Origin: Nitrospirota bacterium
Lineage (GTDB): Bacteria; Nitrospirota; Thermodesulfovibrionia; UBA6902
Direction of reading: 5' to 3'
Length of the DNA: 60,848 bases
Assembly: GCA_016222915.1 (NCBI GenBank)
Contig: JACRQA010000178.1
Span: 1 to 60,848, forward strand
Positions 13,387-59,924 of this stretch are shown here, piece after piece. The notes below the pieces were generated by a model. It worked only from the letters and a program-made list of their open reading frames with translations, did not search any database and was not told the origin of the DNA. The number at the start of each line of letters is the position of its first letter. Within the stretch, counting starts at the first letter, position 1. The position numbers were made by a program, and so were the translations under genes.

Positions 13387-13400
13387 TTGTTAAAAGCTCC

Positions 13401-13838: not shown

Positions 13839-13880
13839 ATGTCCTCTCTATACCAAGTTGCGAAATATTTTGAACATATC

Positions 13881-13910
13881 ATGATAATGGAATATGATTT
13901 TAATTGTCAA
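13881..13910 (-). promoter_or_regulatory. sigma70-like promoter for rplM-rpsI
   Basis: On the minus strand, TTGACA-18 nt-TATCAT, about 45 nt upstream of the rplM ATG. Confidence 0.5.
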
Positions 13911-13958
13911 TACTTGGAGTGAAAAAAGGGCAGAAAGCGGGTCAATCGATCAATGAAT

Positions 13959-14144: not shown

Positions 14145-14526
14145 AATATATACTCCCCTTATGAAATTACCTCATTGTAAATATGATACGTTAGTCGGCA
14201 ATAAAAAGTGAAGCAACTTAAACTGGTAGCAGGTTGAGTTAATAACAACATTAAAAATTAGGCCGGGTATAACTGTAACGTTGCTTGATTTTTCGGAAGT
14301 AAATTGATAATAATGAATACATTGTAATTTATTTTACATTTCAACTTTAATTATTACATCATTTTTTATACTATCTGGTCTGAAACTGGCTTTATGAGGT
14401 ATATTTCCTTACTATGAGGGGAATGCTCATAACAATACATTTCTTTTTCAAACTGCACTTATCATTCTTTGTTATCAGGATGCAAAATATCTCAAAAATT
14501 ATTAATGGCGAATTACAGGTTTTATA

Positions 14527-15273: not shown

Positions 15274-15277
15274 AATA

Positions 15278-16510: not shown

Positions 16511-16522
16511 GGAGGATTATCA

Positions 16523-16774
16523 GTGAGTAAAAACTACGAAGAAGAAATAAGGAACATGGTCTCGGATATTCTTGAGATCCCGGCTGAAAAACTTACGCCT
16601 GATGCGGATTTTTTCAGAGATTTAAATATCGACTCGCTTAAGGCGATTGAGATTGTCGCAGCATTTGAAAAAAAGTACAGGATAATCATCCCGGAACAGG
16701 ACATCCCGAAAATCAGGAACCTCAGGCAGGTAGTTGAGTACACGGCGCCGCTAAAAAAAGAAACGCATATATGA
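16523..16774 (+). CDS. acyl carrier protein
   Basis: 83 aa, with phosphopantetheine attachment motif LNIDSLKAIEIV. GTG start. Confidence 0.88.
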   Translation: MSKNYEEEIRNMVSDILEIPAEKLTPDADFFRDLNIDSLKAIEIVAAFEKKYRIIIPEQDIPKIRNLRQVVEYTAPLKKETHI

Positions 16775-17208
16775 GATGGGACAAGGCTAAGATCCAGTCT
16801 GTTTTGCCTCATCGGGAGCCGTTCCTTTTCATTGATGAGGTAATCGAAGTGGAAGGCACGGAGCGGATAGTGGCGGCAACATATTTAAGGGAGGAGGCAA
16901 GTTATTTCAAAGGTCATTTCCCCGGTAATCCCGTGATGCCCGGCGTATTGATTATCGAGGCAATGGCCCAGGCCTCGGTGATTCTGTTTTCGCTGGACAG
17001 ACCTGAGGTAGCGGCAGGACATCCTGATTATTATTTAGGAAAGGTCAAGTCGGAATTTCTCGCGCCGGCATACCCCGGTGATAAATTAATTGTTGAATCG
17101 AGAAAAGTGAAATTCCTTGATAATGCCGCGATTACGGAGACAGTAGTTAAAGTAGATGAAAGGGTCATAGCAAAAGCGAACCTTATATTCAGCATACAAA
17201 AGAAATAA
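16771..17208 (+). CDS. FabZ/FabA-type 3-hydroxyacyl-ACP dehydratase
   Basis: LPHREPFLFIDEV and HFPGNPVMPGVLIIEAMAQ motifs. ATGA overlap with the ACP gene. Confidence 0.9.
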   Translation: MRWDKAKIQSVLPHREPFLFIDEVIEVEGTERIVAATYLREEASYFKGHFPGNPVMPGVLIIEAMAQASVILFSLDRPEVAAGHPDYYLGKVKSEFLAPAYPGDKLIVESRKVKFLDNAAITETVVKVDERVIAKANLIFSIQKK

Positions 17209-17281
17209 ATAAACTGATCATGGAATTCCGCCGCATGGTTATGGATATCGAATTTTATTCGGACTATGGTTGTATCAAAGC

Positions 17282-18511
17282 ATGAAAACGTTTAACGTCC
17301 AGAAACGCAGGGTGGTGGTTACCGGGTTAGGGGTCGTGTCGTCGGTAGGGATCGGGAAAGATGATTTCTGGAAGGCGATAATCAGCGGCACATCCGGCAT
17401 CAGCAGGGTATCGTCATTTGATACAAAAGAATATAGATGTCATCATGCAGGGGAGATCAAAAATTTCCAACCCGAAGCGTTCATCAACAGAAGGAAACTG
17501 CCTTTTTTGGGTCGAACATCGCAACTATCAATCGCTGCCGCTGCCCTGGCATTAAATGATGCCAAATTCCCCCTGTCTAAAATCAATGCTCATAAAACCG
17601 GAATATTTATCGGGACTACGATGGGTGAAAGACTCATCGAAGAGGTAGTCGATGAATGGATAATAAAAGGCAGTTATGACATGAATAAAACAAAGATAGC
17701 GCAATCATCAGCCAATAACATACCTGCAAATATCGCGCTTTTCTTTAAGATTGACGGTCCTAATTATATGATCCCTACAGCCTGCGCTGCCGGTAACTAT
17801 GCTGTAGGATACGGTTTTGACTTTATCAAAAGAGGCGACCTGGAGTATGCCATTGTGGGCGGCGCCGATGCGTTCTCCAAACTTGCATTTACGGGTTTTC
17901 ATCGCGTCTATGCAATGGCCCCCGAGAAGTGCCAGCCTTTTGATAAAAACAGAAAGGGGATGCTTGTGGGAGAGGGAGCGGCTGTTCTTTTCCTGGAGTC
18001 AATGGAGTCGGCATTGAACAGGAATGCGGAAATATACGCGGAGATACCGGGTTACGGTATCAGTTGTGATGCCTATCATATGACCGCATCAAAGGCTGAT
18101 GGCATAGAAAAGGCGATACTGAAAGCCCTGAAATATACACGTATTAATAAGGAAGACGTTGACTATATTAATGCTCACGGGACCGGGACGCAGGGCAATG
18201 ATAAAACCGAGTGTTCTGTAATCAAAAGTGTTTTTAAAGACAGATATGAGTACATCCCTGTCAGTTCGATAAAATCCATGCTTGGCCATCCTATGGGAGC
18301 TGCTTCTGCAATTGAGGCGCTCGCCTGCTGTCTTACAGTTAAAGAAAACATCATCCCTCCTACAATAAATTTTGAGACCCCGGACCCGCACTGTAATGTG
18401 GATTGTGTACCCAATAAGGCAAAGGTGAAGAAGGTCAACATTGCATTGAATAATGCATTTGCTTTCGGCGGAAATAATTCTTGTCTTGTTGTTAAGAAGT
18501 TTCGGGAATAA
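17282..18511 (+). CDS. beta-ketoacyl-ACP synthase (FabF-like, triad intact)
   Basis: TACAAGNYA (Cys), NAHGTGTQGND (His) and SIKSMLGHPMGAAS (His). ATG at 17282 is preferred over the TTG at 17270. Confidence 0.9.
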   Translation: MKTFNVQKRRVVVTGLGVVSSVGIGKDDFWKAIISGTSGISRVSSFDTKEYRCHHAGEIKNFQPEAFINRRKLPFLGRTSQLSIAAAALALNDAKFPLSKINAHKTGIFIGTTMGERLIEEVVDEWIIKGSYDMNKTKIAQSSANNIPANIALFFKIDGPNYMIPTACAAGNYAVGYGFDFIKRGDLEYAIVGGADAFSKLAFTGFHRVYAMAPEKCQPFDKNRKGMLVGEGAAVLFLESMESALNRNAEIYAEIPGYGISCDAYHMTASKADGIEKAILKALKYTRINKEDVDYINAHGTGTQGNDKTECSVIKSVFKDRYEYIPVSSIKSMLGHPMGAASAIEALACCLTVKENIIPPTINFETPDPHCNVDCVPNKAKVKKVNIALNNAFAFGGNNSCLVVKKFRE

Positions 18512-18521
18512 TAAAAATATT

Positions 18522-19820
18522 ATGAAACAAAATAGAGTCGTAGTTACAGGGTTAGGTCCTATAGCTTCTACGGGAATCGGAAAAGACGCATTCTGGCAGG
18601 GGATCATTGACCAGAGGACCGGTTTAAGTTCAAGGGAATTTAACATTGACGGGGCATCCTGGGAGAGTTTCCCTGTCCATAGCGTAAAGGATTTTGATTT
18701 TGGAAGATTTCACGTAGATGAATTGGCCATAGCATATATGACGGACTGGAAGCAGGAAGGGCCGCCTGTTGATTTGTATTACCTTATGGCCGCAGTTGCG
18801 TTGTCCCTGGAAGACAGCGGGCTCAGATACGATTCCGGGGACAACGGTTTAAGCCTTGTTTTGACCCATGAAAATATGGGCCTCATGCCGTTTCTATATA
18901 AGCTCAGTGAGATATCATACGATGCCCTGAAATCCGAAACAGGCCCAAGCTTATCCAGGAAAGAATTCTATGAAAAGCTTTACCGTGATTGTCTGAAAAG
19001 CGGTTATGATGTTCAGACTTTCATGACATTGTTTCATGTGGCCAAGGCGTTTAATATCCATAACTACTCACTGTTTACAAACAATGCCTGCGCATCAGGG
19101 CTTTATGCCCTGGAATCCGCGGCGCAGATGATAAAATGCGGTCAGAGCTCCGCAGTTGTTGTGGCTGCATCGGAGTATACGGAAATATATAAATATCTCT
19201 GGTTCAGGGACATCGGCCTTTATTCCGGAGATGGAACGATCAGGCCGTATTCCAAGGACAGTAACGGCCTGGTCTTCGGTGACGGAGGGGTGGGAATAGT
19301 TTTGGAAGATTTGGAACATGCTGAAAAAAGAAACGCGCATATATACGCGGAGTACCTTGGCGGAGGGTTTCACCTTGAAGGGTGGAAAGTAACGACCCCT
19401 CAAATCGGGAGCGATTCATATCAAAAGGCCATATTGAAGGCCATATCACAAAGCAAAATTAATATAGAAGAAATTGAATTGCTGTGCCCGCATGGAGTGG
19501 GTTCTCAATCTATAGATTATTACGAGTCTAAGGCAATAACGGATATCTTCGGTTTAAATCCCGTGAAGCCTCTTATTACGGCTTTCAAACCTTATGTAGG
19601 CCATAACCTGGGGGGAAGCGCATTATTGGAAACCGCAATTCTTCTGCTGTCTCTCGAACATAAAACGGTGTTGCCTACTTTGAATTGTGAGAATGTCAAC
19701 CCTGTATTTAATATATCTCCGGTCAGAGAGAAAATAAAAAAAGAAGTGAATACGGCGATGAAAATATGCTGCGCCTTTGCAGGGTATAATTCAGCGGTTG
19801 TATTTAAGAGGTGGGACTGA
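18522..19820 (+). CDS. divergent beta-ketoacyl synthase family protein
   Basis: VVVTGLGPIAS, NNACASGLYA, CPHGVGSQ and VGHNLGGSA motifs. ATG at 18522 follows the upstream stop by 10 nt. Confidence 0.8.
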   Translation: MKQNRVVVTGLGPIASTGIGKDAFWQGIIDQRTGLSSREFNIDGASWESFPVHSVKDFDFGRFHVDELAIAYMTDWKQEGPPVDLYYLMAAVALSLEDSGLRYDSGDNGLSLVLTHENMGLMPFLYKLSEISYDALKSETGPSLSRKEFYEKLYRDCLKSGYDVQTFMTLFHVAKAFNIHNYSLFTNNACASGLYALESAAQMIKCGQSSAVVVAASEYTEIYKYLWFRDIGLYSGDGTIRPYSKDSNGLVFGDGGVGIVLEDLEHAEKRNAHIYAEYLGGGFHLEGWKVTTPQIGSDSYQKAILKAISQSKINIEEIELLCPHGVGSQSIDYYESKAITDIFGLNPVKPLITAFKPYVGHNLGGSALLETAILLLSLEHKTVLPTLNCENVNPVFNISPVREKIKKEVNTAMKICCAFAGYNSAVVFKRWD

Positions 19821-19821
19821 T

Positions 19822-21225
19822 ATGTCTCAGCGGTATGATTATGAAGCAATAATAATCGGCGCCGGCATAAGCGGTCTTGTGTGCGGATGCTATTTGGCCA
19901 AAGCCGGCTTGAAGACCCTGATTGTGGAAAAAAATGCAGGGCCGGGCGGATACTGTACGTCATTTAAGCGCGGGGGCTTTCAATTTGACGCATGCGTACA
20001 TTCACTAGGAAGCCTGAGGACCGGCGGTAACGTAAGGACCATTTTACAAGAATTAGATATTGAAGAACGATTAAGAATTACGAGACATGACCCGTCGGAT
20101 ATAATTATCGCCCCGGATTTTACGGTTCATTACTGGAACGATATAGATAAGACGGTGAGCGACTTCCAGAATATTTTTCCGGCGGAGTCGGAGAATATCA
20201 GGAAGTTCTTTGATTATATTCAGGGCTGCGAAGGTATTGCTCTTATGTCCTTAAAGTCCGTTACATTCCAGATGATGCTTGACAGGTATTTTAACGACTA
20301 TAGATTAAAGGCGGTCCTTTCACTTCCCGTATTGGGTAATGCCGGCTTGCCGCCGTCAAAAATATCATCAGTTACCGCTGTTCTTATTTACAAGGAATTT
20401 ATGTTGGACGGAGGGTATTGCCCGGATGGCTCTGTTCAGGCTTTAGCGGACATCCTGGCTGCGCGCTTTAGAGAGTTCGGCGGAGACATCTTTTTTTCCT
20501 GCGCCGCAAAAAGAATCAAAATAGAGGAGGGAAAGGTCCTTGGAGTTGAAACAGCAAAAAATGATATATTCTCATCTAAATATTTAATTTCCAGTATCGA
20601 TGCTACATCTACGTATATGTCTCTTATCGGTGAAACGGCTTCAGGTCAAAAGATAATGAGCTTATTAAATAAAATGGAGCCTTCCCTGTCTGCGTTCATT
20701 TTATATCTGGGGACAGACGGCAAACTCGAAAATGTTCGTAAAGATTCTGTTATATGGTCTATGCCGCATTATGATATAGATAATATTTATAATTTGACCG
20801 TGCAAGGTAAAGTCGATGAGTTGGACTGGTTCCTGTCGAGGTTATCGTCTAATCACAGTCTCTTTATGTTCGTTAATGTGCCTTTTGTCAATGAAGCATA
20901 CTGGCAGGACAACAAGAGAAGGTTGATTGATATTTATATAAATAAAATGGAACGGATATTCCCGGATTTATCACGCCATATAATATACAAAGATGCCGCT
21001 ACACCCATGACCTTAAATAAATGGACCTCAAACCATAAAGGGGCGTCTTATGGGTGGGCCAAGACACCTTCGCAGTTTGCTGTAACAGGTTTTACACAAA
21101 ATACGGCCATTGAGAATTTATATCTGACGGGCCACTGGACAACTTTATATCAGGGTGTGGGCGGGGTCGCATATCTGGGACGGGACACATCGAATAAGAT
21201 TTTAAAGAAGGAAACCGCTCAGTGA
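19822..21225 (+). CDS. CrtI/phytoene-desaturase-family FAD-dependent oxidoreductase
   Basis: N-terminal dinucleotide fold YEAIIIGAGISGLVCGCYLAKAGLKTLIVEKN..GGY. About 467 aa. The start lies 1 nt after the upstream stop. Confidence 0.8.
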   Translation: MSQRYDYEAIIIGAGISGLVCGCYLAKAGLKTLIVEKNAGPGGYCTSFKRGGFQFDACVHSLGSLRTGGNVRTILQELDIEERLRITRHDPSDIIIAPDFTVHYWNDIDKTVSDFQNIFPAESENIRKFFDYIQGCEGIALMSLKSVTFQMMLDRYFNDYRLKAVLSLPVLGNAGLPPSKISSVTAVLIYKEFMLDGGYCPDGSVQALADILAARFREFGGDIFFSCAAKRIKIEEGKVLGVETAKNDIFSSKYLISSIDATSTYMSLIGETASGQKIMSLLNKMEPSLSAFILYLGTDGKLENVRKDSVIWSMPHYDIDNIYNLTVQGKVDELDWFLSRLSSNHSLFMFVNVPFVNEAYWQDNKRRLIDIYINKMERIFPDLSRHIIYKDAATPMTLNKWTSNHKGASYGWAKTPSQFAVTGFTQNTAIENLYLTGHWTTLYQGVGGVAYLGRDTSNKILKKETAQ

Positions 21226-48124: not shown

Positions 48125-48544
48125 ATGAGTAAGTCGAATGTTATTGTCGTCGATGATACGAGAGAGGTTTTAACATCCCTGGAAAGAGAGCTCCGGGACG
48201 AGCCATATAATATATTTTATGCCGGGGGCGGGGAAGAGGCATTAAAAATAATGTCTGAAAATCCCTGTAAAGTTATTATCTCTGATGTGAAGATGCCGAA
48301 GATGGACGGCTTTGAGCTTCTTGCGAAAGTCAGGGAGCGATACCCGGACATGATCAGGGTAGTGCTTTCGGGCCATGCGGATGTAAAGCTGGTCCTTGAT
48401 ATAGTGAACGAGAAGGGAATAGACAGGTATTTGACCAAGCCCTGGAATACTGCGGATGTAAAAGCGACGATTAATCAATGCATAGAACTATATGACTTGC
48501 GGAAGGAAGTGAAAGAGCTTCGCGAGCAGATAAAGAATAGATGA
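48125..48544 (+). CDS. single-domain response regulator (CheY-like receiver)
   Basis: VIVVDD...VIISDVKMPKMDG...LSGH...LTKPW. 139 aa. Confidence 0.88.
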   Translation: MSKSNVIVVDDTREVLTSLERELRDEPYNIFYAGGGEEALKIMSENPCKVIISDVKMPKMDGFELLAKVRERYPDMIRVVLSGHADVKLVLDIVNEKGIDRYLTKPWNTADVKATINQCIELYDLRKEVKELREQIKNR

Positions 48545-49536
48545 GAATGGAAAATATATCTGTAATCGGAGCCGGGAGCTGGGGTACGACCCTGGCAAAC
48601 CTTCTTGCAGAAAAGGGACACTGTGTAACGCTCTGGGCCTTTGAGAAGGACATCGCCGATAGCATAAGGCGTACGCGTATTAATCAGCTCTACCTTCCGA
48701 AAGTCACTTTATCTGAAAAATTGACGGTGACCGGGGACATGCATGAGGCTGTAACAAATGCCGCGTATATATTGAATGTGGTCCCGACACAATTTACGCG
48801 ACCTGTTTTCAGCAGCGCTGTAAAATACATCCCTGATAACGCGCAGATAATAAGCGCCTCAAAAGGCATCGAGCATGGGACCTTGATGACCGTTTCCGCA
48901 ATTCTCAATGACGTGACAAAACGGAAGGTCGCGGTGCTTTCAGGCCCCAGCTTTGCAGAAGAGGTCATTAAGAAATTACCTGCGGCGGTGACGATTGCCG
49001 CGAATGATCGTGATACCGCCATGCTTCTTCAGGATGTATTTAACACGGATTATTTCAGGGTATATACCAGCACCGACGTGCTTGGTGTGGAACTGGGAGG
49101 GGCGCTCAAAAACGTAATGGCCATTGCATCTGGCATATCTGAAGGACTCGGCCTCGGCGCCAGCACAAGGGCCGCTCTCATAACAAGGGGCCTTGCCGAG
49201 ATGATCCGGCTCGGTGTTGCAATGGGCGCAAGGGAAAAAACCTTTGACGGCCTGAGCGGGCTTGGGGACCTTGTCCTGACGTGCACAAGCACGCTTTCAA
49301 GAAATTATACTGTCGGCTATAAACTCGGACGGGGTGAGAAGCTGACTGAGATACTTTCGCAAATGAAAATGGTGGCTGAGGGGGTCGCTACCTCAAAATC
49401 GGCTTATGAACTATCGAAGAAGCATCAGGTGGAGATGCCCATCATCGAACAGATTTATAAAGTGGTGAATGAAGACAAGCGACCTTTTGATGCCGTGAGA
49501 GAACTTATGACAAGGAGTCTGAAGGCGGAATATTAG
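48541..49536 (+). CDS. gpsA: NAD(P)H-dependent glycerol-3-phosphate dehydrogenase
   Basis: VIGAGSWGTTLA, GPSFAEEV and LKNVMAIASG motifs. ATGA overlap with the receiver gene. Confidence 0.93.
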   Translation: MRMENISVIGAGSWGTTLANLLAEKGHCVTLWAFEKDIADSIRRTRINQLYLPKVTLSEKLTVTGDMHEAVTNAAYILNVVPTQFTRPVFSSAVKYIPDNAQIISASKGIEHGTLMTVSAILNDVTKRKVAVLSGPSFAEEVIKKLPAAVTIAANDRDTAMLLQDVFNTDYFRVYTSTDVLGVELGGALKNVMAIASGISEGLGLGASTRAALITRGLAEMIRLGVAMGAREKTFDGLSGLGDLVLTCTSTLSRNYTVGYKLGRGEKLTEILSQMKMVAEGVATSKSAYELSKKHQVEMPIIEQIYKVVNEDKRPFDAVRELMTRSLKAEY

Positions 49537-49765
49537 GGGCCTGTGATCAATTTTAACGTTGCATAATCAGGCAAGCGGCCTTGCCGTAAAAACTTTACAA
49601 TGCGATGAGATATTGAATAAACTTTGATGGCAGGACTAACGCTTGGTGAAGTTCAGGAAGACATTACTTATGCTTTCATGAATCTCGCCAAGGTATCCCA
49701 GGTAAAGCTTTTCCGTCAAGGCCGCTCGCCTGGGATCAATATTTAATACAATAGTAAGGTCAATT

Positions 49766-50533
49766 ATGGACAATAAAAAAATAAAATCGATTCTCGACTC
49801 GGTCAAGAGAGGGAAGACCCATGTAGCCGAAGCAATGGAACAGTTGAAGCACTTGCCGTATGAGGATTTGGGGATGGCAAAGGTCGACCATCACAGGGAG
49901 CTCAGGCATGGCATCCCTGAAGTGATATTTGCTGAAGGCAAGGAACAGGAAGACATTACAAGGATTGCCGAAGCCATGATCAGGAACAGCGGAAAGGCGC
50001 TGATAACGAGGGCCGGTAAAGCGGTCTTCAGGGACATCGAAGCCATGTGCAGAAGACACAAAATAAAGGCAGCGTATCATGAAAAATCACGCGTGATTAT
50101 GGCCGGAGGTTCTGGGGACAGGAAAGGCCGGATAGCCGTGCTGTGCGCGGGGACCTCGGACATGCCGGTCGCTGAAGAAGCGGCAGTCACCGCTGAATTC
50201 CTTGGAAGTAAAGTTGAGACCGTCACTGATATCGGTGTTGCCGGACTGCACAGAATTGTACATGCCGGCAAGGTATTCAGAGAGGCGAATGCATTGATCG
50301 TCGTTGCGGGCATGGAAGGCGCCCTTCCTTCTGTTGTAGGAGGGATGACGGACAAACCCATCATTGCCGTGCCGACCTCGGTAGGATACGGCACAAGTTT
50401 CGGAGGGCTTACAGCCCTGTTTGCGATGCTCAATTCATGTGTTCCGGGCATTGCTGTGATGAATATAGATAACGGCTTCGGCGCAGGGGTGCTTGCGCAT
50501 AAGATCAATTCGATAAAAAATAATAAACGATGA
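49766..50533 (+). CDS. larB: nickel-pincer cofactor biosynthesis protein LarB (PurE-like carboxylase/hydrolase)
   Basis: C-terminal PurE-like fold RIAVLCAGTSDMPVAEEA...VVAGMEGALPSVVGG...IAVPTSVGYG. Confidence 0.85.
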   Translation: MDNKKIKSILDSVKRGKTHVAEAMEQLKHLPYEDLGMAKVDHHRELRHGIPEVIFAEGKEQEDITRIAEAMIRNSGKALITRAGKAVFRDIEAMCRRHKIKAAYHEKSRVIMAGGSGDRKGRIAVLCAGTSDMPVAEEAAVTAEFLGSKVETVTDIGVAGLHRIVHAGKVFREANALIVVAGMEGALPSVVGGMTDKPIIAVPTSVGYGTSFGGLTALFAMLNSCVPGIAVMNIDNGFGAGVLAHKINSIKNNKR

Positions 50534-51753
50534 TTGCATACTTTGACTGCTTTTCAGGAATAAGCGGGGACATGACTTTGGGTGCGCTGGTTGATGCCGG
50601 TGTTCCGCTCTTAAAGCTCAAGCACGAACTGGCCCGCCTGCCTGTCAAGGGATATCGGTTGACTTCGAGAGAAGTAAAAAAGGCGGGGATGAGGGCGACC
50701 AAGGTTGATTTAATTTTGAACGACCCCTCTAAATCCCCCCTTAGTAAGGGGGGACTTAAGGGGAGGCATGCGTCAGGGGCGAGAAGATGGAAAGACATAG
50801 AGAAGATCATTGATGGCTCCACATTATCAGAGTCTATCAAACAAAAGGGGCTGCTCATCTTCAAGAGACTCTTTGAAGCTGAAGCCAGGGTACACGGCGG
50901 GCGGTTTGATGAAGTCCACTTGCACGAGCTTGGGGCTGTTGACTGTATTGTCGATATCTTCGGGTCATTGATCGGGCTTGATATCCTGGGCATCGATACA
51001 ATCTATTCATCCTCTGTGAATGTTGGAAGCGGTTCCATCAGGTCGGAGCACGGGCTCCTGCCGGTACCCGCACCCGCGTCTGTGGAATTATTGAAGGGTG
51101 TCCCTGTTTATTCATCGGGTGTGAAATTTGAACTTACTACTCCTACCGGCGCTGCCTTGATCTCATCTCTTTCCGCCGGCTTCGGCCCCATGCCGAACAT
51201 ACAAATTGTGAAAGCGGGAGTCGGCGCTGGTGACAGGGATTTCAAAGATCAGCCGAATATACTCAGGATGTTTATCGGAGAGAAGGCGGAAAAGAAGAGT
51301 CAGGGGTCAGGAGTCAGGAGTCAGAAGTCGGAAGATCCGATAACAGTCATCGAGACCAATATTGACGACATGAATCCCCAGGTTTATGAATATGTAATGG
51401 AGAAATTGTTCAAGGCCGGAGCACTCGATGTCTTCTTGACACAGATCATCATGAAAAAGGGAAGGCCGGGCATTAAACTGAGTGTGCTCTGTAATGAAGA
51501 TAAAAAAGGTCCCCTGTCTGAAATCATATTGAAAGAAACAACGAGCATAGGCCTGAGATTTTACACGGCTGAGCGTAAGACCCTTCAGCGTGAAATAGTC
51601 TCAATAGATACAAAGCACGGAAAGGTGAGAGTGAAGAAATCCCGGCTCGGCAAAGAAATTCAAAAGGCATCTCCTGAATATGAAGACTGCAGGAAGATAG
51701 CGAAGAAGTTTAATATACCTCTCTTGGAAGTTTTAAAAGCGGTCAGTTCATAG
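50530..51753 (+). CDS. larC: nickel insertion protein LarC (DUF111 family)
   Basis: N-terminal YFDCFSGISGDM, plus HLHELGAVD and TPTGAALI motifs. ATGA overlap with larB. Confidence 0.88.
   Translation: MIAYFDCFSGISGDMTLGALVDAGVPLLKLKHELARLPVKGYRLTSREVKKAGMRATKVDLILNDPSKSPLSKGGLKGRHASGARRWKDIEKIIDGSTLSESIKQKGLLIFKRLFEAEARVHGGRFDEVHLHELGAVDCIVDIFGSLIGLDILGIDTIYSSSVNVGSGSIRSEHGLLPVPAPASVELLKGVPVYSSGVKFELTTPTGAALISSLSAGFGPMPNIQIVKAGVGAGDRDFKDQPNILRMFIGEKAEKKSQGSGVRSQKSEDPITVIETNIDDMNPQVYEYVMEKLFKAGALDVFLTQIIMKKGRPGIKLSVLCNEDKKGPLSEIILKETTSIGLRFYTAERKTLQREIVSIDTKHGKVRVKKSRLGKEIQKASPEYEDCRKIAKKFNIPLLEVLKAVSS
51298..51332. repeat. heptanucleotide tandem repeat (AGTCAGG-like)x5 in the larC interdomain linker
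   Basis: Read directly: agtcagg ggtcagg agtcagg agtcaga agtcgga, encoding SQGSGVRSQKSE. Confidence 0.65.
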
Positions 51754-51968: not shown

Positions 51969-52496
51969 ATGCAATCAATAGTACCGGCTGAAGTAATCGA
52001 AAGAAAGATTCTGCTGATAAGGGGACAGAAGGTCATGCTTGACAGAGGTCTCGCAGATTTGTATGGTGTTGCGACAAAAGTATTGTTGCAGGCAGTCAAA
52101 AGGAACCTTACTCGCTTCCCTGACGATTTTATGTTTCAGTTGAATTATCAAGAAGTTGCAGCTTTGAGGTCACAAATTGTGACCTCAAAGACCGGCAGAG
52201 GCGGCCATCGGTATCAGCCCTATGTATTTAGTGAACAAGGCGTTGCCATGCTTTCAAGCGTATTGAACAGTGAACGGGCCATCCAAGTGAATATCGCTAT
52301 CATGGGGGCATTCGTTAAATTGAAAGAAATGCTCTCGACTAACAAAGAACTTGCTCACAAGCTGGCGCAGCTTGAGCGGAAGATAGAGAAACATGATGGA
52401 GAGATTAAATTGATCTTTGATGCCATAAGGCAATTGATGATTCCGCCGGAGACGAAGAAAAAGAAGATCGGGTTTGGGAGGGAGAAGGAGGGGTGA
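51969..52496 (+). CDS. ORF6N (KilA-N-related) domain protein
   Basis: IRGQKVMLDRGLADLYGVATKVLLQAVKRNLTRFPDDFMFQL...YVFSEQGVAMLSSVLNSERAIQVNI is the ORF6N signature. Confidence 0.85.
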   Translation: MQSIVPAEVIERKILLIRGQKVMLDRGLADLYGVATKVLLQAVKRNLTRFPDDFMFQLNYQEVAALRSQIVTSKTGRGGHRYQPYVFSEQGVAMLSSVLNSERAIQVNIAIMGAFVKLKEMLSTNKELAHKLAQLERKIEKHDGEIKLIFDAIRQLMIPPETKKKKIGFGREKEG

Positions 52497-52538
52497 CAAT
52501 GTTCCCCTCTTTGGCAAAGAGGGGTTAGGGGAGATTTT

Positions 52539-52733
52539 ATGAAGAAATTCTACGCGCACAGCATTGAGGGGAAGTCGGTTGATGAATGGCATCTGCTTGA
52601 GGAGCATTTGAAGGGGACGGCAAAGCTTGCGAAGTCCTTTGCGGATGAGTTCGGGTCGGGGGAATGGGGGTATTTGGCGGGGGTGTGGCATGATCTTGGG
52701 AAGTTATTTTGTTTGTATAAGCTGACGGGATAG
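52539..52733 (+). pseudogene. cas3 HD-domain N-terminal stub (truncated after the HDLGK motif)
   Basis: FYAHSIEG...WHLLEEHLKGTAKLAKSFADEFG...AGVWHDLGK is a Cas3 N-terminus. The frame stops 9 codons later, 38 nt before cas5. Confidence 0.7.
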
Positions 52734-52771
52734 CATAACATCATAAAACTACAAAGAAGGGGGGCTTATAA

Positions 52772-53413
52772 ATGGTTAAATCTTACGAGGTATCATTTGA
52801 GATCGCCGGGCCTGCTGCTATGTTTACCCGTCCGGATTCAGGTGCTGCTCAGGTGTCGTATCCTGCGCCGACATTTTCAGCCGCTAAAGGTATGTTTGAA
52901 GCAATTGCATGTCTGAGAGGAGATAAAGGGAGTGACCGTAAGGGAGCAGCAACCATTCGACCGACGAAAGTCGAAATCTGTGCCCCTCTCAAGTTTCACA
53001 AATACACCACTAACTACGGTGGGCCATTACGTAAAAGCAATCAGATGGCACAAGGCAGTTCCTATCAAATTCCTGCAACCATATTGATCGATGTTTGTTA
53101 TCGCCTCTATGGGATCGTGGAAGAGGTTAGCATGTCGCGTGATGGAACAAATCATAGGCATTACTTGCAGGACTTGTTTCATAGGCGACTAAAACAAGGA
53201 AAAGTTTACTATACGCCGTGCCTTGGATGGAAAGAGTTTGTGCCGTCTTATGTAGGAGCGTTCCGGGAAGCCACCAAGAAACAGGAAGACATCGATATGG
53301 TTATCCCTTCAATGCTTCACAGCGTCTTTGACAAGATATCAGATGGAGAAGTTGCTCCAAGATTCACTGTTGATGCAGTAATCAGGGAAGGAGAATTGAT
53401 CTATGCTAAATGA
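52772..53413 (+). CDS. cas5: CRISPR-associated Cas5, subtype I-C-like (Cas5c/Cas5d)
   Basis: FEIAGPAAMFTRPDSGAAQVSYPAPTFSAAKGMFEAIA is the Cas5d N-terminal signature. 213 aa. Confidence 0.85.
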   Translation: MVKSYEVSFEIAGPAAMFTRPDSGAAQVSYPAPTFSAAKGMFEAIACLRGDKGSDRKGAATIRPTKVEICAPLKFHKYTTNYGGPLRKSNQMAQGSSYQIPATILIDVCYRLYGIVEEVSMSRDGTNHRHYLQDLFHRRLKQGKVYYTPCLGWKEFVPSYVGAFREATKKQEDIDMVIPSMLHSVFDKISDGEVAPRFTVDAVIREGELIYAK

Positions 53414-55535
53414 ACTATATCAGCTATCTCGCAATCTACAACAATGCGGCATCGTATTTGGAACACTGCATCAGGACGTTAAAACACCGGGCAAGGGCGA
53501 TGGATTCATCATCGAAGTTGATAAGCAAGGCCAACCTGTGAACATCGAATTCACAGAGTCAACAAAAATGGCCAAGCTATGGACAATCAGGAAAGGCAAG
53601 CATAATAGTTTTCCCTATGTGAAGATTAAGCCATTGTGGGATTTAGATTTAGATGATTCGTTGAGGGACTACCTTAAATACGTCCGCAATAAGAAAGAGA
53701 CGAAGAATATTTATGCGGGGAAAATAAAAGAAATATTTGAGCCAGTTTGCAACGACAAAGAACTTAACAAGCATGATGTGATTATTTCTAAATGGGCGAA
53801 AACTAAAATACAGACATTACGTGATAAAGACGAAAAACTTGATGCTTTGCTCCAGTTGTCTGGACGTCTACCTGGCGACGGGAACAAAACAACTAAATTC
53901 ATTGCAATATTAGCGAGCCTATTTCTTCAGAAGATGCAGGCTTTCATTGATGAGGGCTTTGGTAAATCTGAAAAAGATGGCAAGACACGGCAGGAAATTA
54001 TTGAAACAGTAATTATAGGCAAGATTAAGAAAGAAAAGGGAAAAGAGAAAGCTGTTTGTGATGTTCCGTTATTTTTTGATATAAGCGATTGGCCTCAATA
54101 TTCTTGTCGTGTGGCTGATCCTGCAATGGGTAAGCTAGTTGGAGCGAACCTTCCGTCCGGACAGCAATCGGGTAAGCTAGGCATATCCGCGTTGGAAGGT
54201 CAGAAAAAAGTATTGCATTTAGGGCCTTATCCGGATCCGACATTACCGGCTGTTGGTATCGTGTATCTGTTTTCAATGAATGAAGTTATTCCATGCCATG
54301 ATAGATATAGACTGATCGGGTCTAAGATATTTCCTTCGAGCAGAGATGCCGTGGCGACCGTTCATGGAGCACTTCAGTGGTGTGTTGCAGATGAGCGAAG
54401 AGGAAAGACATGGCAAGGAGTGCCTAATATGAAGCGAAAGCAGGACTTGCTTATTTCTTATCTGGAAGAAAAACCTGAAAACGCTATCGAACTTGCGAGT
54501 CTTTTTGCAGCGCCGGATATAGAGGAAAGTATAACAGCCGAGGCTGTTTACGAGAATAAATCAAAAACTGTCTGTGATGCTCTGCGCGGAGCACCGGGCT
54601 TAAATGATAATTCTCAGGTCAATGTGCTTGTTATCAGTAAGGTTGATGAGGGGCGTGCTCAGGTAGTACTCAGCACTGCCTACAGCAGGAAGAATATCAT
54701 TCAAAGCGTGGAGGGGTGGACAACGGCGACTGACAATAGGCCATCATTTTCATTGTGGCTGCCGGGGAAGAAGGGGGAGAAGGCCAAGCAAGCCGAACCC
54801 TCAAGTCCTTCGCCCACGGATGTCATGAAATGCTTTCAGAACCAATGGATCAAGAATGGACTTGATAAACGAGATGTAACAGGCCTTTATTTGCGCCACG
54901 TGTATGATTTGTATCTTGGCGATACTTTTATTGCGCGGCAAGCGGCAAATAATTTCCTGACTCTTTCTCTTCAGCGACTCAGTGAGTTGTTGATCGGTTA
55001 TGGCGGCTCCGATCATATATCGAAAGCCCTCAAATTTGAAGTGATGAAGAAGAAGTATTCGACTGATGCCCGCAAAACCGTTCTGAACGCTATTTCAATT
55101 TTAGCGATTACGTTATATAAACTTGGCATAAAAAAGGAGGTCTACATGAAGAATGCGGCTTTTAATGTCGGCAGGATGCTTGCGCTTGCGGACAAATTGC
55201 ATTGTGAGTATTGCATTAATGTGCGCGGGAAGAATGAGACTGATGAAGAAAAGAAAAAATCAATTCCGGCTCAGTTAATCGGCAATGCTCTTATGCGTAC
55301 AGCATTGGATAATCCTTTAAAAGGACTGTCCCTTCTTAGTGAAAGGTTATTGATATATCAGGCATGGGCGACTAAGGCACAGGGTGATAATGTTGGATTG
55401 GCCAAGTGGGTCTTGGGCCAGATGGGACATGTTTCAGCAGAGCTGGAAAATGCCGATATTCCAAGGCAGGCTGATGACGCAGTAAAGGCACAGATATTAT
55501 TGGGCTATTTGGCACATATTAAAAACGAAGATTAA
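53403..55535 (+). CDS. cas8c: CRISPR large subunit, Cas8c/Csd1-like
   Basis: 710 aa, between cas5 and cas7 with an 11-nt overlap to cas5. Assigned mainly by position and size; the N-terminus resembles Csd1. Confidence 0.7.
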   Translation: MLNELYQLSRNLQQCGIVFGTLHQDVKTPGKGDGFIIEVDKQGQPVNIEFTESTKMAKLWTIRKGKHNSFPYVKIKPLWDLDLDDSLRDYLKYVRNKKETKNIYAGKIKEIFEPVCNDKELNKHDVIISKWAKTKIQTLRDKDEKLDALLQLSGRLPGDGNKTTKFIAILASLFLQKMQAFIDEGFGKSEKDGKTRQEIIETVIIGKIKKEKGKEKAVCDVPLFFDISDWPQYSCRVADPAMGKLVGANLPSGQQSGKLGISALEGQKKVLHLGPYPDPTLPAVGIVYLFSMNEVIPCHDRYRLIGSKIFPSSRDAVATVHGALQWCVADERRGKTWQGVPNMKRKQDLLISYLEEKPENAIELASLFAAPDIEESITAEAVYENKSKTVCDALRGAPGLNDNSQVNVLVISKVDEGRAQVVLSTAYSRKNIIQSVEGWTTATDNRPSFSLWLPGKKGEKAKQAEPSSPSPTDVMKCFQNQWIKNGLDKRDVTGLYLRHVYDLYLGDTFIARQAANNFLTLSLQRLSELLIGYGGSDHISKALKFEVMKKKYSTDARKTVLNAISILAITLYKLGIKKEVYMKNAAFNVGRMLALADKLHCEYCINVRGKNETDEEKKKSIPAQLIGNALMRTALDNPLKGLSLLSERLLIYQAWATKAQGDNVGLAKWVLGQMGHVSAELENADIPRQADDAVKAQILLGYLAHIKNED

Positions 55536-55558
55536 TAATCCAAAAAGGAGGCTTTGTT

Positions 55559-56422
55559 ATGTCAGACAAGACTGTAAATTTGGTTGATAAGAGAGCAACG
55601 GGTTTGTTGATAATCGAAGTGAGAAATTCTAACCCTAATGGTGATCCTGACCGCGAAAGCGATCCCCGGCAAAGACAGGACGGACGCGGTGAGATTTCGC
55701 CGGTATCATTCAAAAGGAAAGTGCGCGACCTTGTTGAAAGAAAGACAGGAACCGTATGGCTATCTGTTTCTAAGCAATTCTCTCCTGAGCTTGACCTAAG
55801 TAACTTCATGATTTCAGAAAGCCGCGAAACAAAGCTCACGGATATCCGCAATCTGAATGAAGAGCAGTTTACTGAGAAGTTTTGGGATGGTCGTATCTTC
55901 GGAAATACAGAACTGGAAAAGGGCAGAAATATACCGGTTAAAACGGGTGTAGTTCAGTTTGGGCTTGGAGTATCAGTGTCCCCGGTAGAAGTGAGACGTA
56001 TGACGACCACGAATCCTCCTGTTGAAGGAGATAAAAAAGTAGGAATGGCACCATTGGCATACCGCATTGTTCAACACGGGGTCTATTGTATGCCGTTTTT
56101 TGTTAACCCAACCGCTGCAAGCAAAACCCACTGCACTCAAGTCGATATTAAACTTCTATTAAAAATTATCCCCTATGCTTATACGCATACTGCATCCTAT
56201 ATTCGATCATGTGTCGAAATACGCCATGCGTGGTATATGGAGCATAAATCTGCATTAGGATCATGCTCCGACTTTGCCTTGATTGATGCATTAACCCCTG
56301 CGCGAAAGAAGGATCAGGACGCTGAGAAACCGTCAACGTCGTGGGACGATTATGAACCAAAAGAACTACCGAAGGAGTTACGAGAGAAATTGAATGACGT
56401 TAGGGACCTAATGAATGAATAG
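55559..56422 (+). CDS. cas7: CRISPR backbone subunit Cas7, Csd2-like
   Basis: EVRNSNPNGDPDRESDPRQ...GEISPVSFKRKVRDLVE is the Csd2/Csh2 signature. Confidence 0.88.
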   Translation: MSDKTVNLVDKRATGLLIIEVRNSNPNGDPDRESDPRQRQDGRGEISPVSFKRKVRDLVERKTGTVWLSVSKQFSPELDLSNFMISESRETKLTDIRNLNEEQFTEKFWDGRIFGNTELEKGRNIPVKTGVVQFGLGVSVSPVEVRRMTTTNPPVEGDKKVGMAPLAYRIVQHGVYCMPFFVNPTAASKTHCTQVDIKLLLKIIPYAYTHTASYIRSCVEIRHAWYMEHKSALGSCSDFALIDALTPARKKDQDAEKPSTSWDDYEPKELPKELREKLNDVRDLMNE

Positions 56423-58634
56423 CGAAGAGCCATTGGCGCATAGCGCAAAACCGGACAAGGGCATCCCTCCGCAGACATACGCAAAACACATAGCAGGAGT
56501 TATGGAGCGGGCAACTGAAAATATATCGGCGATGACGCAGTATTTTTCAGGGGATGCTCAGGTTTTGCAAGAGGTAGTAGAACGGGCGGCTCTGCTTCAT
56601 GATTTGGGTAAGCTGGATGTAGCTAATCAGGCGGTTTTAAAAAAAGGCGGCAAGAAACATTTGCCTTTGAATCATGTTGATGCCGGTTCAGCCTACTTAT
56701 CTGAAAGCAAAGAATTTGCAGCAGCCTTCTTTGTGTATGGACATCACATCGGGTTGCAATCTGTTCCATATGAGACCGGAAGGGAAGGCCTATTTTTGCG
56801 GGATAACAAAATTTACAAAGAGGTTGATCAAAAGATCGAGGACTACCTTGCTGACCATAAAAAGTGGTTCGGAGTAGTCGAGAAATCATCAGGAAAGAGC
56901 CCTAAAATAACAGGTTTGACAAGGCGGCTGGCTTTTTCGTGCATGGTCGATGGTGATTATGGCGATACAGCCGTGCATTATGGCGGCGAATCGGACAAGC
57001 TACCAGTAAGCCCGAAATGGGAAGATCGCCTTGTGAAATTAAATGAGTATGTTCAGGACTTGCAAAACAAACCCGACGCTTCAAAAGCGCGTAAAAAACA
57101 GAGGCAAAAGGCTTACGAGTCTTGCCGGAATGCGGACACACAGCCCAGCTTATACTCATGCGACAGTCCGGTAGGCACTGGTAAGACTACAGCAGTTATG
57201 GCTCATCTTCTCCGTGCAGCAATTGATAAAGAGTTGAGACATGTTTTTGTGGTATTGCCTTACACAAATATCATCAAACAATCAGTGGATGTTTATCGTA
57301 AGGCGCTTGTTATTACCGGCGAGAATCCTGAAGAAGTTGTTGCCGAACACCATCATCAAGCTGATTTTTCAAGCTATGACTTGCGTCAGCACGCTTCCTT
57401 GTGGACTGCGCCTATTATCGTAACAACAGCGGTTCAATTCTTTGAGACCTTAGGCGCGAATCATCCGGCTCAATTGCGAAAACTACATGAATTGCCGGGG
57501 TCTGCAATATTCTTGGACGAAGCACATGCAGCTATCCCTACCTGGCTATGGCCGCAGGCATGGCGCTGGCTGAAAGATTTGGCTGATAATTGGCGATGTC
57601 GTTTTGTATTTGCATCAGGGTCGCTTCCTCAGTTTTGGCGGAACGATAAGATCACAACAGCTATTGAGGATGTGCCGAATCTTTTGGGTGCTCAACAGCG
57701 GGTGCAAGCAAATAAGCAGGAAAAAGAGCGGGTAGTATATTTCGAGAACGAGGAAGAGTTTGATGTTAATGGTCTGATGAACTTTATACAGTCAAAAAAA
57801 GGACCAAGACTTGTTGTCTTAAATACTGTACAGTCTGCGGCAGTTCTCGCTTGGAAAATGCAAAAGACAGGTAAGCAAGTCACGCATTTGTCGACTGCAT
57901 TAACCCCTAATGACAGAGACGCCCTTGTTGAGGACATAAAAATGAGACTGCAAATAAAAGACGACACAGATTGGTCACTTGTAGCAACAAGCTGCGTTGA
58001 AGCAGGGATGGATTTCTCTTTCGCTACGGCATTCCGGGAAAGTTGTAGCGCCGCGAGCTTGATACAGATCGGCGGACGCGTTAACCGACACGGGAATTCA
58101 GCACAAGCAGAAGTGTTCGACTTTCGTGTTAATGATCCTCTCATGAAAAATAATCCCCAGTTAAGAACATCGAGAAATGTTTTAAAGACGTTATTTGAGG
58201 AGAAATATTTCGAGAGAAAAGACCCGACTGAAATAGTTTCAGAAGCAATGAGGCGTGAACTGATGAGCGATTTCGGTGATTTTGAGAGCAAGTCTAAGGA
58301 AATAACAGATCATGAAAATAAAAACGATTATCCTAAAGTGGCAGAGTTATGTAAGGTCATCGATGCCGATACACGGTTGGTAGTTGTATCACCTGAAATC
58401 GTTAATGCTTTGAAAGGGTATGAAAAAATTGATCCGGTAGACTTAATTCGCAATAGTGTGCAGATTCGATTTATCAAAATCAAGACGACTCAATTTAACA
58501 GTTTTTGTATCCCTGTTAATGATCATCGAGAGATATATGCTTGGCAAGGTAAATATGATGGCAAGTTTTTAGGGTATATGGAAGCTATAATCCCATTACT
58601 TGAACTGGATGTTGATGGGTTTGCAATATTATGA
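56415..58634 (+). CDS. cas3: Cas3 nuclease-helicase (HD plus SF2 helicase), full length
   Basis: HD motifs AHS, LLHDLGK, YGHHIG and MVDGDYGD. Helicase motifs SPVGTGKT, FLDEAHA and QIGGRVNRHG. Confidence 0.9.
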   Translation: MNSEEPLAHSAKPDKGIPPQTYAKHIAGVMERATENISAMTQYFSGDAQVLQEVVERAALLHDLGKLDVANQAVLKKGGKKHLPLNHVDAGSAYLSESKEFAAAFFVYGHHIGLQSVPYETGREGLFLRDNKIYKEVDQKIEDYLADHKKWFGVVEKSSGKSPKITGLTRRLAFSCMVDGDYGDTAVHYGGESDKLPVSPKWEDRLVKLNEYVQDLQNKPDASKARKKQRQKAYESCRNADTQPSLYSCDSPVGTGKTTAVMAHLLRAAIDKELRHVFVVLPYTNIIKQSVDVYRKALVITGENPEEVVAEHHHQADFSSYDLRQHASLWTAPIIVTTAVQFFETLGANHPAQLRKLHELPGSAIFLDEAHAAIPTWLWPQAWRWLKDLADNWRCRFVFASGSLPQFWRNDKITTAIEDVPNLLGAQQRVQANKQEKERVVYFENEEEFDVNGLMNFIQSKKGPRLVVLNTVQSAAVLAWKMQKTGKQVTHLSTALTPNDRDALVEDIKMRLQIKDDTDWSLVATSCVEAGMDFSFATAFRESCSAASLIQIGGRVNRHGNSAQAEVFDFRVNDPLMKNNPQLRTSRNVLKTLFEEKYFERKDPTEIVSEAMRRELMSDFGDFESKSKEITDHENKNDYPKVAELCKVIDADTRLVVVSPEIVNALKGYEKIDPVDLIRNSVQIRFIKIKTTQFNSFCIPVNDHREIYAWQGKYDGKFLGYMEAIIPLLELDVDGFAIL

Positions 58635-58707
58635 GGTACGCCAATCAATGACTATATTAAAGATCAATTTGAACAACTTTAAAACCATAAGAGGGGGACA
58701 ACACACA

Positions 58708-59301
58708 ATGACTAACCCAAAGGACCACCCACACCTCATCCCGCCGCACGGCGGCTACCGCAACCTGCGGTCTTATCAGACCGCTGAACTTGTCTACGAC
58801 TACACTGTGGTATTTTGCAACCGCTTTATCGACAAGAGATCGCGCACGCATGATCAAATGGTGCAGGCAGCGCGGAGCGGAGTGCAGAACATTGCAGAAG
58901 GTAGTATGGCTTCCGCGACCTCGAAGAAGACAGAGCTCAAACTGACCAGCGTTGCCCGAGCGAGTCTGGAAGAGTTGTTACTGGACTTCCAGGCTTTTCT
59001 CCGACAAAGGGGCTTGCGCATTTGGGCCAAAGATTCACCGGAGGCCCTTGCGGTGAGGAGAAAGTATCCGTCCGACAAGGCTGACAGGTCTGACACATCG
59101 CACATGTCCGATCCTTATTCTTTGAAGACAGCTTCGCCTGAGGTTGCAGCCAACACAATGATTTGTCTGACCAACCAGGCCAGCTATCTTCTTGGGCGAC
59201 AGCTTAAAAAGCTCGAACAGCAATTCCTGACAGAGGGCGGTTTCACTGAGAGGCTCTATAATGCGCGAACACAAATGCGCAATGGGAGAAGGAAGACTTG
59301 A
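58708..59301 (+). CDS. four-helix-bundle protein (23S rRNA IVS / Avd-like family) with C-terminal suffix domain
   Basis: LIPPHGGYRNLRSYQTAELVYDYTVVFCNRF...QNIAEGS and C-terminal TEGGFTERLYNAR. ATG at 58708 has SD GAGGGGGA. Confidence 0.75.
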   Translation: MTNPKDHPHLIPPHGGYRNLRSYQTAELVYDYTVVFCNRFIDKRSRTHDQMVQAARSGVQNIAEGSMASATSKKTELKLTSVARASLEELLLDFQAFLRQRGLRIWAKDSPEALAVRRKYPSDKADRSDTSHMSDPYSLKTASPEVAANTMICLTNQASYLLGRQLKKLEQQFLTEGGFTERLYNARTQMRNGRRKT

Positions 59302-59924
59302 ATTATACCGAAGATGAACTCATCATGCTCTCTGCCTTGCAACACCTTGTCTTCTGCGAACGGCAGTGTGCGTTAATCCATATTGAGCAACTGTGGTCTG
59401 AAAACGTACTGACTGCCGAAGGAAAGATCATACACGACAAAGTTGACACTGCAAACCGGGAATCACGAGGCAAGATTCGCATCGACTATTGTGTCCCACT
59501 GCGGTCACTGAGGCTCGGATTAATCGGCAAGGCGGATGTAGTTGAATTTCATCGGAAGGCCGACGGGATGTGGCAGCCTTTTCCTGTAGAATACAAACGA
59601 GGCAAACCCAAGATTGATGACAGCGATAAAGTTCAGCTTTGTGCTCAGGCGCTCTGCCTGGAAGAAATGCTCAATGTCGAGATTAGTGAGGGCGCTCTTT
59701 TTTACGGACAGACCCGGCGCAGGGAGGATGTTGTTTTCGATAACGCTTTGAGAATGGAGACAGAGGATACAGCAAGAAAGGTCCATGAACTTATCGCATC
59801 GGGCATTACACCAAAAGCCGAATATTCAAAGAAGTGCAAGCAATGTTCCTTGCTTGAGCTATGCATGCCGAGGATAAACAGGAAGGCGAGTAAATATTTA
59901 CTGATGGTAATCGAGGAGGAGTAA
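59298..59924 (+). CDS. cas4: Cas4 RecB-like exonuclease (4-Cys cluster)
   Basis: LQHLVFCERQCAL, GKADVVEF...VEYKRGK and C-terminal CKQCSLLELC. Confidence 0.88.
   Translation: MNYTEDELIMLSALQHLVFCERQCALIHIEQLWSENVLTAEGKIIHDKVDTANRESRGKIRIDYCVPLRSLRLGLIGKADVVEFHRKADGMWQPFPVEYKRGKPKIDDSDKVQLCAQALCLEEMLNVEISEGALFYGQTRRREDVVFDNALRMETEDTARKVHELIASGITPKAEYSKKCKQCSLLELCMPRINRKASKYLLMVIEEE

Follow-up and report, generated by a model that had tools for sequence, protein, structure and literature searches.

Canonical subtype I-C CRISPR-Cas loci carry their genes in the order cas3-cas5-cas8c-cas7-cas4-cas1-cas2, and subtype I-B loci in the order cas6-cas8b-cas7-cas5-cas3-cas4-cas1-cas2. Here we describe a type I-C-like cas locus in a 60,848-bp stretch of DNA from a Nitrospirota bacterium (JACRQA010000178.1, C135; hereafter the window), which is one entire contig of a metagenome-assembled genome (MAG) of 227 contigs with 94% completeness and 3.7% contamination. 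In this locus a complete cas3 follows cas7, and the first position of the canonical I-C order holds only a 64-codon cas3 remnant, which is referred to as the stub. An earlier note, made from the sequence alone, had read this arrangement as module shuffling, in which cas5-cas8c-cas7, an I-C cassette, had come together with a cas3-cas4 cassette of separate ancestry. Our comparisons indicate that the locus is probably a cas3-last I-C cassette set into a canonical I-C backbone, the stub being a remnant of the old cas3 that marks a recurrent exchange border.

Thirty-seven related loci were retrieved by Cas5 alignment from the contigs of one genome per species. The order cas5-cas8c-cas7-cas3-(4HB)-cas4-(RhuM)-cas1, in which 4HB stands for a four-helix-bundle gene of the 23S rRNA intervening-sequence (IVS) type and RhuM for a RhuM-family gene, was found in every one of the 37 loci with enough sequence, so that the layout is conserved and a local rearrangement no longer accounts for it. 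The loci span at least 10 phyla, including Nitrospirota, Planctomycetota, Thermodesulfobacteriota, Myxococcota, Bacillota, Chloroflexota, Armatimonadota and Spirochaetota. Among the carriers are the anammox planctomycetes Brocadia and Kuenenia, Paenibacillus popilliae and Negativicutes of the Bacillota, and the 3.58-Mb record OY970295.1, titled 'chromosome: 1'; loci that have no stub, in Bacillota, Armatimonadota and Spirochaetota, keep the cas3-last order too. The closest relative (G025), with proteins 81-87% identical to those of the window, continues beyond cas4 with RhuM, cas1, a PDDEXK_3 gene, cas2 and 21 repeats of GTCGCTCCCCGCGCGGGAGCGTGGATTGAAAC. The repeat is 32 nucleotides long, contains CTCCCCGCGCGGGAG as its palindromic core and ends at its 3' side in ATTGAAAC, and we take it to be a typical I-C repeat. 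Thus the cas1, cas2 and array that the earlier note had proposed to look for downstream exist in this relative, while the window's own contig ends in the RhuM gene and none of the three occurs elsewhere in its assembly; for this reason the completeness of the locus in this organism is inferred from G025. A canonical cas3, cas1 and the I-C repeat were not found when the assembly of the window's own genome was searched. The earlier note had also allowed that the order might be the conserved layout of an already named subtype or variant. It is conserved, and a literature search that did not extend to the 2015 classification paper returned no description or name of the cas3-last layout and none of cas3 stubs. 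Cas3-last is the native order of a widespread and apparently undescribed I-C sub-lineage.

Profile comparisons of the effector proteins agree with this placement. Cas8c aligned to the PADLOC profile PDLC01562 over its full length (residues 1-708) and gave zero matches to Pfam Cas_Csd1 or any NCBIfam model; the strong PADLOC match, together with no match in the other two collections, indicates a divergent Cas8c family. The best profiles for Cas5 were those of Cas5c, with NCBIfam Cas5c at 35.9 bits, under its cut-off of 85. Cas7 reached 108 bits on NCBIfam Csd2 (cut-off 182), and its top PADLOC profile is common to I-B and I-C. The full Cas3 scored 338 bits on PADLOC Cas3c, compared with 685-776 bits for canonical Cas3c proteins; its HD domain scored 46.9 bits on cas3_HD (cut-off 43.45), the cas3_core, DEAD and Cas3 C-terminal domains are also present, and H25, H62-D63, H87, H110-H111, D179 and the GTGKT and DEAH motifs are invariant (alignment A1). 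No Cas6 was found among the open reading frames (ORFs) between 52539 and 60848, every one of which was assigned. The locus therefore has the single-chain Cas3 with an N-terminal HD nuclease and a superfamily 2 (SF2) helicase, the Cas8c large subunit and, as judged by profile, the Cas5c in place of Cas6 that characterize I-C, and departs from it in gene order. From the end-to-end Cas8c match, and because Cas5, Cas7 and Cas3 match I-C best and score well under canonical proteins, it belongs to a divergent I-C sub-lineage. Judged by sequence, the window appears to carry an intact and ordinary, functional-looking type I-C interference module of this distinct sub-lineage.

The limits of the cassette were drawn from the way protein identities vary among loci. 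In type A loci, which are window-like, Cas8c is 53-84% and Cas3 75-81% identical to the window's proteins, and in type B loci the corresponding values are 24-31% and 40-46%. Cas4 is 70-78% identical in both types, and Cas1 77-96% in type B loci of Nitrospirota and their neighbours. Related Nitrospirota, one of them of the same family (G007), have canonical loci with cas3 first; there Cas4 is 60-77% and Cas1 65-81% identical, the 4HB and RhuM inserts recur, and the N-terminus of Cas3 shows 58-66% identity with the stub. In the phylogeny of Cas3, type A loci grouped as one clade, supported at 100%. In that of Cas4, canonical loci and those of types A and B were intermixed, with the window's cas4 in such a mixed clade, and monophyly of type A was rejected (delta log-likelihood 87, p-AU 0.002) in a test whose groups were set by Cas8c identity after a first Cas4 tree had been seen. 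Because of this co-variation of identities and the Cas3 and Cas4 trees, cas3 is assigned to the cassette with cas5, cas8c and cas7, and cas4 to the backbone with cas1, the accessory genes and the stub. Effector and adaptation genes are discordant in ancestry, as the earlier note had suspected, with Cas3 siding with the effectors and Cas4 not. Module shuffling that left a stub of the cas3 at the canonical site is accordingly supported, and the boundary proposed between cas5-cas8c-cas7 and cas3-cas4 is wrong, because cas3 travels with cas5, cas8c and cas7.

In one locus (L027), synteny with the window extends over GpsA, LarB, LarC, ORF6N and the stub, whose amino acid sequences show 64-75% identity; the DNA of the stub shows 85%. 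There follows a type B cassette with Cas5, Cas8c, Cas7 and Cas3 at 48%, 25%, 46% and 40% identity, and then Cas4 at 78%. Since GpsA-LarB-LarC stand beside the locus in both the window and L027, the chromosomal site of the slot is fixed, and the cassette has been replaced in situ at this syntenic site. Among the window, L011, L015, L025 and L027, DNA identity is highest at the 3' end of the stub, in its tail and in the intergenic piece up to the cas5 ATG (85-98%), and between type A and type B loci it falls to 40-65% within cas5. Between L015 and L027 the 5' part of the stub is 60-73% identical and the junction 92-98%; this mosaic indicates recombination inside the stub. An intermediate arrangement is found in a Paenibacillaceae MAG (L024), where a canonical cas3, a variant cas5-cas8c-cas7-cas3 and a canonical cas5c-cas8c-cas7c-cas4-cas1 follow one another (7341-20594). 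This locus, which ends within cas1, contains two complete I-C effector sets in tandem with a single cas4 and cas1.

The stub encodes the first ~55 residues of a canonical I-C Cas3 HD domain followed by an unrelated 9-residue tail, and the family scans confirmed its identification as the start of a Cas3 HD domain (Table 1). The match to TIGR01596 cas3_HD covers positions 1-45 of 178 with 34.5 bits, under the curated cut-off of 43.45, and that to PADLOC Cas3c covers profile positions 11-59 of 612. A profile built from stubs matches residues 11-57 of the solved type I-C Cas3 chains 8zns_A and 8g9u_P. The metal ligands of NlaCas3 are H8, H25, H52, D53, H118 and H119 (PMC11417383). The stub retains the equivalents of H8, H25, H52 and D53 and is without H118 and H119; since only the first four of the six ligands are present, it cannot be an HD nuclease alone. 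Its AlphaFold model is mostly one long helix at moderate confidence (pLDDT 75.6, the predicted local distance difference score), and H7 and H23 are invariant among 35 stubs. What the old cas3 lost was its body and not its head, so that 'decapitated', the word used in the earlier note, is the wrong way round. Two other origins were ruled out: the stub does not duplicate the start of the full-length Cas3 (24% identity, E 0.025), in agreement with the earlier note, and stub and downstream ORF are not the halves of a split cas3, as each downstream cas3 has its own complete N-terminus.

Of the 37 variant loci, 18 have stub-like sequence just 5' of cas5. Roughly half of these copies are open with a start codon, and the remainder are frameshifted, start-less, truncated or interrupted by a small repeat-like insertion. 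Decayed copies, with a frameshift, no start, an insertion or stops, were seen in L011, L016, L023, L036, L039, L042, L046, L084, L014 and L060, and the G025 copy lacks a start codon and carries a +1 frameshift. When the stub profile was searched against 1.84 billion representatives, 5,724 hits were obtained, and 136 of the top 150 were classed: 56 were short proteins that depart from Cas3 within a few residues of HDLGK, 34 break later than HDLGK and 46 were full or contig-cut canonical Cas3c (e.g. P0015, which scores 760 bits against the Cas3c profile). With the window's stub as query, a search added 41 further 90%-identity clusters of 50-111 amino acids, several of them on contigs of 20-196 kb. 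An even sample of 401 Nitrospirota genomes yielded ~37 frames of full length; short ones, some of them at contig ends, occurred in ~33 genomes. A single origin of all stubs was considered with a tree of 55 columns, which lacked resolution; 24 changes were needed, and the well-supported branches are still compatible with one origin.

The contexts of stubs, drawn from these clusters and from the even Nitrospirota sample, are varied. A cas3-last cassette follows the stub in L079, L084 and L090. A full canonical cas3 with its own N-terminus follows it in L071, L074, L078, L080, L081 and L085, and the gap between the two sometimes holds toxin-antitoxin, Bro-N, ORF6N or IVS-protein genes. In L077 a stub 75% identical to the window's precedes a type I restriction-modification (R-M) system (9001-17728; HsdR, AAA_14, HsdS and others). 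Only cas4-cas1 follows the stub in L087, L088 and L089 have stubs without any cas genes, and L076, L078 and L086 carry two or three stubs each. Stubs thus stand before unrelated cargo, and a stub need not have been made by the arrival of the cassette that now follows it, because similar ones precede canonical loci, the R-M system or no cas genes. No integrase or recombinase was found among the called genes adjoining stubs in the contexts examined.

In the reading we favour, a cas5-cas8c-cas7-cas3 cassette probably sits between a canonical cas3 head on its left and cas4, cas1, cas2 and an I-C array on its right, in a backbone interleaved with 4HB, RhuM and, in relatives, PDDEXK_3 accessory genes. 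The replacement would have spanned the old cas3, from just past the HD motif, through the end of the old cas7, and would have left the stub behind. Each stub would then be the left edge of a slot whose contents, effector cassettes or other defence genes, are swapped repeatedly. The swaps presumably proceed by homologous recombination, for which the stub region and cas4/cas1 would serve as arms. The stub itself would be non-functional as a nuclease and probably a passenger, with a protein-like conservation inherited from full-length cas3. Several observations weigh against this reading. The break points mostly cluster a few codons past HDLGK, which simple random deletion does not predict; in many stubs the start codon is intact and the frame runs up to or into the operon's first gene; there are groups of stubs with a common tail and different bodies; and cas1, cas2 and the array are missing from the window's own, 94% complete assembly. 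The ratio of nonsynonymous to synonymous substitution rates (dN/dS) is 0.04-0.35 in every pair of stubs, with synonymous sites near saturation, and the private changes of stubs, counted as private codon differences only, comprise 87 synonymous and 78 nonsynonymous ones, where neutrality would give ~1:3.3 (p 4e-16); the stub is thus better conserved than expected of a neutral relic.

Such constraint could mean that the stub is a functional protein of ~50-60 amino acids kept at the head of the I-C operon as a regulator, a translationally coupled leader ORF or a decoy for Cas3-binding inhibitors. In a set of 12 stubs dN/dS was 0.04-0.32, and six independent pairs differed by 117 synonymous and 80 nonsynonymous changes (p 4e-30). 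The synonymous bias of private changes on stub lineages, the 41 further clusters with members on long contigs, the two invariant histidines, the groups with one tail and differing bodies, and the stop codons that touch or overlap the following start codon in L017, L029, L036 and L074 all point the same way. However, at the DNA level the 141-nucleotide core of the window's stub is closest, ahead of any stub, to the 5' end of a full-length canonical cas3 from the same family (G034, 89%), and the stubs of L027, L075 and L078 are likewise nearest to a full-length cas3 5' end (86-90% with the window's stub counted in). The ratio of nonsynonymous to synonymous differences per site (pN/pS) is alike for stub-stub (0.27), full-stub (0.32) and full-full (0.31) comparisons, and private changes in full-length cas3 (33 synonymous to 20 nonsynonymous) do not differ from those in stubs (Fisher p 0.27), both being far from neutral. 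Because the nearest relative is full-length and full-length genes show equal ratios, low dN/dS does not prove selection on the stub itself; judging from these sequences, the constraint signal may date from the era when each stub was part of a working cas3, or recombination with such a gene may have renewed it. In addition, retrieval by protein similarity favours low dN, about half of the copies are broken in a locus sample chosen independently of the stub, the copy of the closest relative has neither a start codon nor an intact frame, many stubs lack the D of the HD motif and the C-terminal end, stubs remain where all cas genes are gone, and confidence in the AlphaFold model is only moderate. 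We therefore regard a functional protein at the operon head as improbable, and a selected function for the stub in general as unlikely. It is likewise doubtful that the stub is a selected element in the broader sense, either a translated two-helix HD micro-protein that retains H7 and H23 and would modulate Cas3/Cascade or couple translation of the operon, or a maintained 'landing pad' that, by being conserved, would allow distant lineages to swap effector cassettes and other defence systems; a stub under selection would represent a novel type of small component in cas loci.

The cluster of break points after HDLGK might instead reflect site-specific insertion at a hot spot, with mobile defence cassettes entering an att-like target within the conserved sequence that codes for the HD motif, without homologous exchange. 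Independent-looking junctions do coincide despite differing cargo (variant cas5, full cas3, toxin-antitoxin pairs, R-M), and stubs occur in tandem in L076, L078 and L086; yet no integrase or recombinase accompanies them among the called genes, no 3' remainder of an interrupted cas3 was seen, about a quarter of the truncated forms end later, past YSxEFQ, and the mosaic identity profile agrees with homologous recombination, which leaves this explanation a slim chance. The joining, in this lineage, of a cas5-cas8c-cas7 cassette to a cas3-cas4 cassette of other, I-B-like ancestry is very unlikely. The position of cas3 3' of the effector genes and before cas4 is that of I-B, and Cas3 also matches Cas3b profiles (236 bits), but its top profile is Cas3c, it tracks Cas5, Cas8c and Cas7 across loci as Cas4 does not, the four-gene order is kept in all related loci including the stub-less ones, and in L024 the four genes stay together, with a canonical cas3 on one side and a canonical cas5c on the other. 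That the contig is a chimera of unrelated cas fragments, produced in assembly or binning, is hardly credible: the MAG has many contigs and some contamination, but the same order with 75-89% identical proteins recurs in many independent assemblies, including OY970295.1 and contigs longer than 100 kb, and composition is even throughout the locus. The replacement of an effector cassette within a canonical I-C backbone, with the stub as its border, thus remains the explanation that we prefer.

ORF calling placed all ORFs of the locus on the + strand, and the family scans bore out the positions and gene order of the earlier note, which had left out the 4HB gene between cas3 and cas4 and the RhuM gene after cas4 (Table 1).

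Table 1. Features of the cas locus in the window and insertions at stubs of related loci (E, E-value).
Feature	Positions	Strand	Evidence
ORF6N-domain accessory gene, left locus edge	51969-52496	+	Pfam ORF6N E 2.8e-32; PADLOC candidate PDC-S05 E 1.8e-57
cas3 stub, 64 codons, MKKFYAHS...EEHL...WHDLGK	52539-52733	+	PADLOC Cas3c E 3e-13; TIGR01596 E 2e-8
Junction/intergenic piece ending at cas5 start codon	52734-52771	+	85-98% nucleotide identity among window, L011, L015, L025, L027
cas5 (Cas5c-like, divergent), 213 amino acids	52772-53413	+	PADLOC Cas5c E 2e-19; Pfam Cas_Cas5d E 1.3e-10
cas8c of variant lineage (large subunit), 710 amino acids	53403-55535	+	PADLOC PDLC01562 Cas8c (CAS-I-C) E 1.9e-146
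cas7, 287 amino acids	55559-56422	+	Pfam Cas_Cas7 E 1e-51
cas3 of variant cassette, complete, HD nuclease + SF2 helicase, 739 amino acids	56415-58634	+	PADLOC Cas3c PDLC01765 E 4e-101
4HB accessory gene (23S rRNA IVS type); probable start, frame open from 58600	58708-59301	+	TIGR04258 4helix_suffix E 1.2e-23; TIGR02436
cas4, 208 amino acids	59298-59924	+	TIGR00372 E 2.7e-43; PADLOC Cas4c E 2e-88
RhuM-family accessory gene, 3' of cas4, broken off by contig end	59928-60848	+	Pfam Virulence_RhuM E 3.9e-114
Toxin-antitoxin insertions	L014 9216-9813; L039 ~8900-9218; L060 ~2400-3200; L078 4821-5517		
~25-codon insertion in stubs	L036 9729-10004; L060 ~2170-2400; L014 8782-9021		proteins P0186, P0188

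Genes for GpsA, LarB-like and LarC-like housekeeping proteins lie directly left of the defence locus (window 48541-51753). ORF6N, 4HB/IVS and RhuM genes are interleaved with cas genes in the window and in many related loci: an ORF6N gene is also found 5' of the stub in L017, L027, L038 and L080, and the 4HB gene occupies the equivalent place in many loci, both variant and canonical. Both ORF6N and RhuM match PDC-S05, a candidate defence system of PADLOC, and the PDDEXK_3 gene of G025, between cas1 and cas2, is of the GxxExxY type (L007 15418-15804). The 42-nucleotide gap between ORF6N and the stub contains a hairpin with a perfect 10-bp stem (CCCCTCTTTG / CAAAGAGGGG, 52503-52528) with no T-run behind it, and a promoter scan at the threshold of the tool gave no sigma-70-like site directly 5' of the stub or in the junction. 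In several loci toxin-antitoxin pairs (Phd/RelE-like, MNT/HEPN, MazE/PIN) lie between the stub and the first cas gene. A common insertion of ~25 codons (...GGDCPRFTDGAKRSRRIGTVPG... or ...EGTVPDLRTE.S.VVE.GLSPAKR...) splits the stubs of several unrelated loci, and its sharing suggests a small mobile repeat landing in the stub. The called genes upstream of the stub in L074, where a full cas3 follows, share some domain families (FHA/VWA, PP2C) with L077.

The cas3-last I-C lineage is widespread, reaching from Nitrospirota to anammox bacteria and Paenibacillus, and annotation pipelines may call such loci incomplete or rearranged because their Cas8c is invisible to Pfam and NCBIfam and no description of the layout was found. 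The stubs would be a rare readable record of in-place effector replacement in which the adaptation module and array stay. They would thereby bear on how hosts can change their interference machinery, for example under anti-CRISPR pressure, while retaining spacer memory.

Compared with canonical subtype I-C (Dvulg; Desulfovibrio vulgaris, Bacillus halodurans, Neisseria lactamica), the window's lineage likewise has no cas6, has Cas5c-like and Cas8c-like proteins, a putatively Csd2-like Cas7 and a fused HD-helicase Cas3, and shares the adaptation module cas4-cas1-cas2. It differs in that cas3 follows cas7 and does not precede cas5, in a Cas8c that Pfam Csd1 and NCBIfam do not see, in Cas5 and Cas7 proteins that fall under the NCBIfam I-C cut-offs, and in a Cas3 with less than half of the canonical score on the Cas3c profile. 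With subtype I-B it shares a cas3 at the 3' end of the effector genes, directly 5' of cas4. Unlike I-B, it has no cas6, its order is cas5-cas8-cas7 rather than cas8-cas7-cas5, its large subunit is Cas8c and not Cas8b, and Cas3b, Cas5b and Cas7b profiles score under those of I-C, except for one Cas7 profile shared by I-B and I-C. The slot as a whole resembles the variable slots of defence islands, which also have conserved borders around interchangeable cargo. Here the borders are the stub, often with ORF6N, and cas4/cas1, and the cargo comprises the two cassette types, canonical cassettes, toxin-antitoxin pairs and an R-M system; the difference is that the left border is a fragment of a cas gene and not a housekeeping gene, and that no integrase is associated with it.

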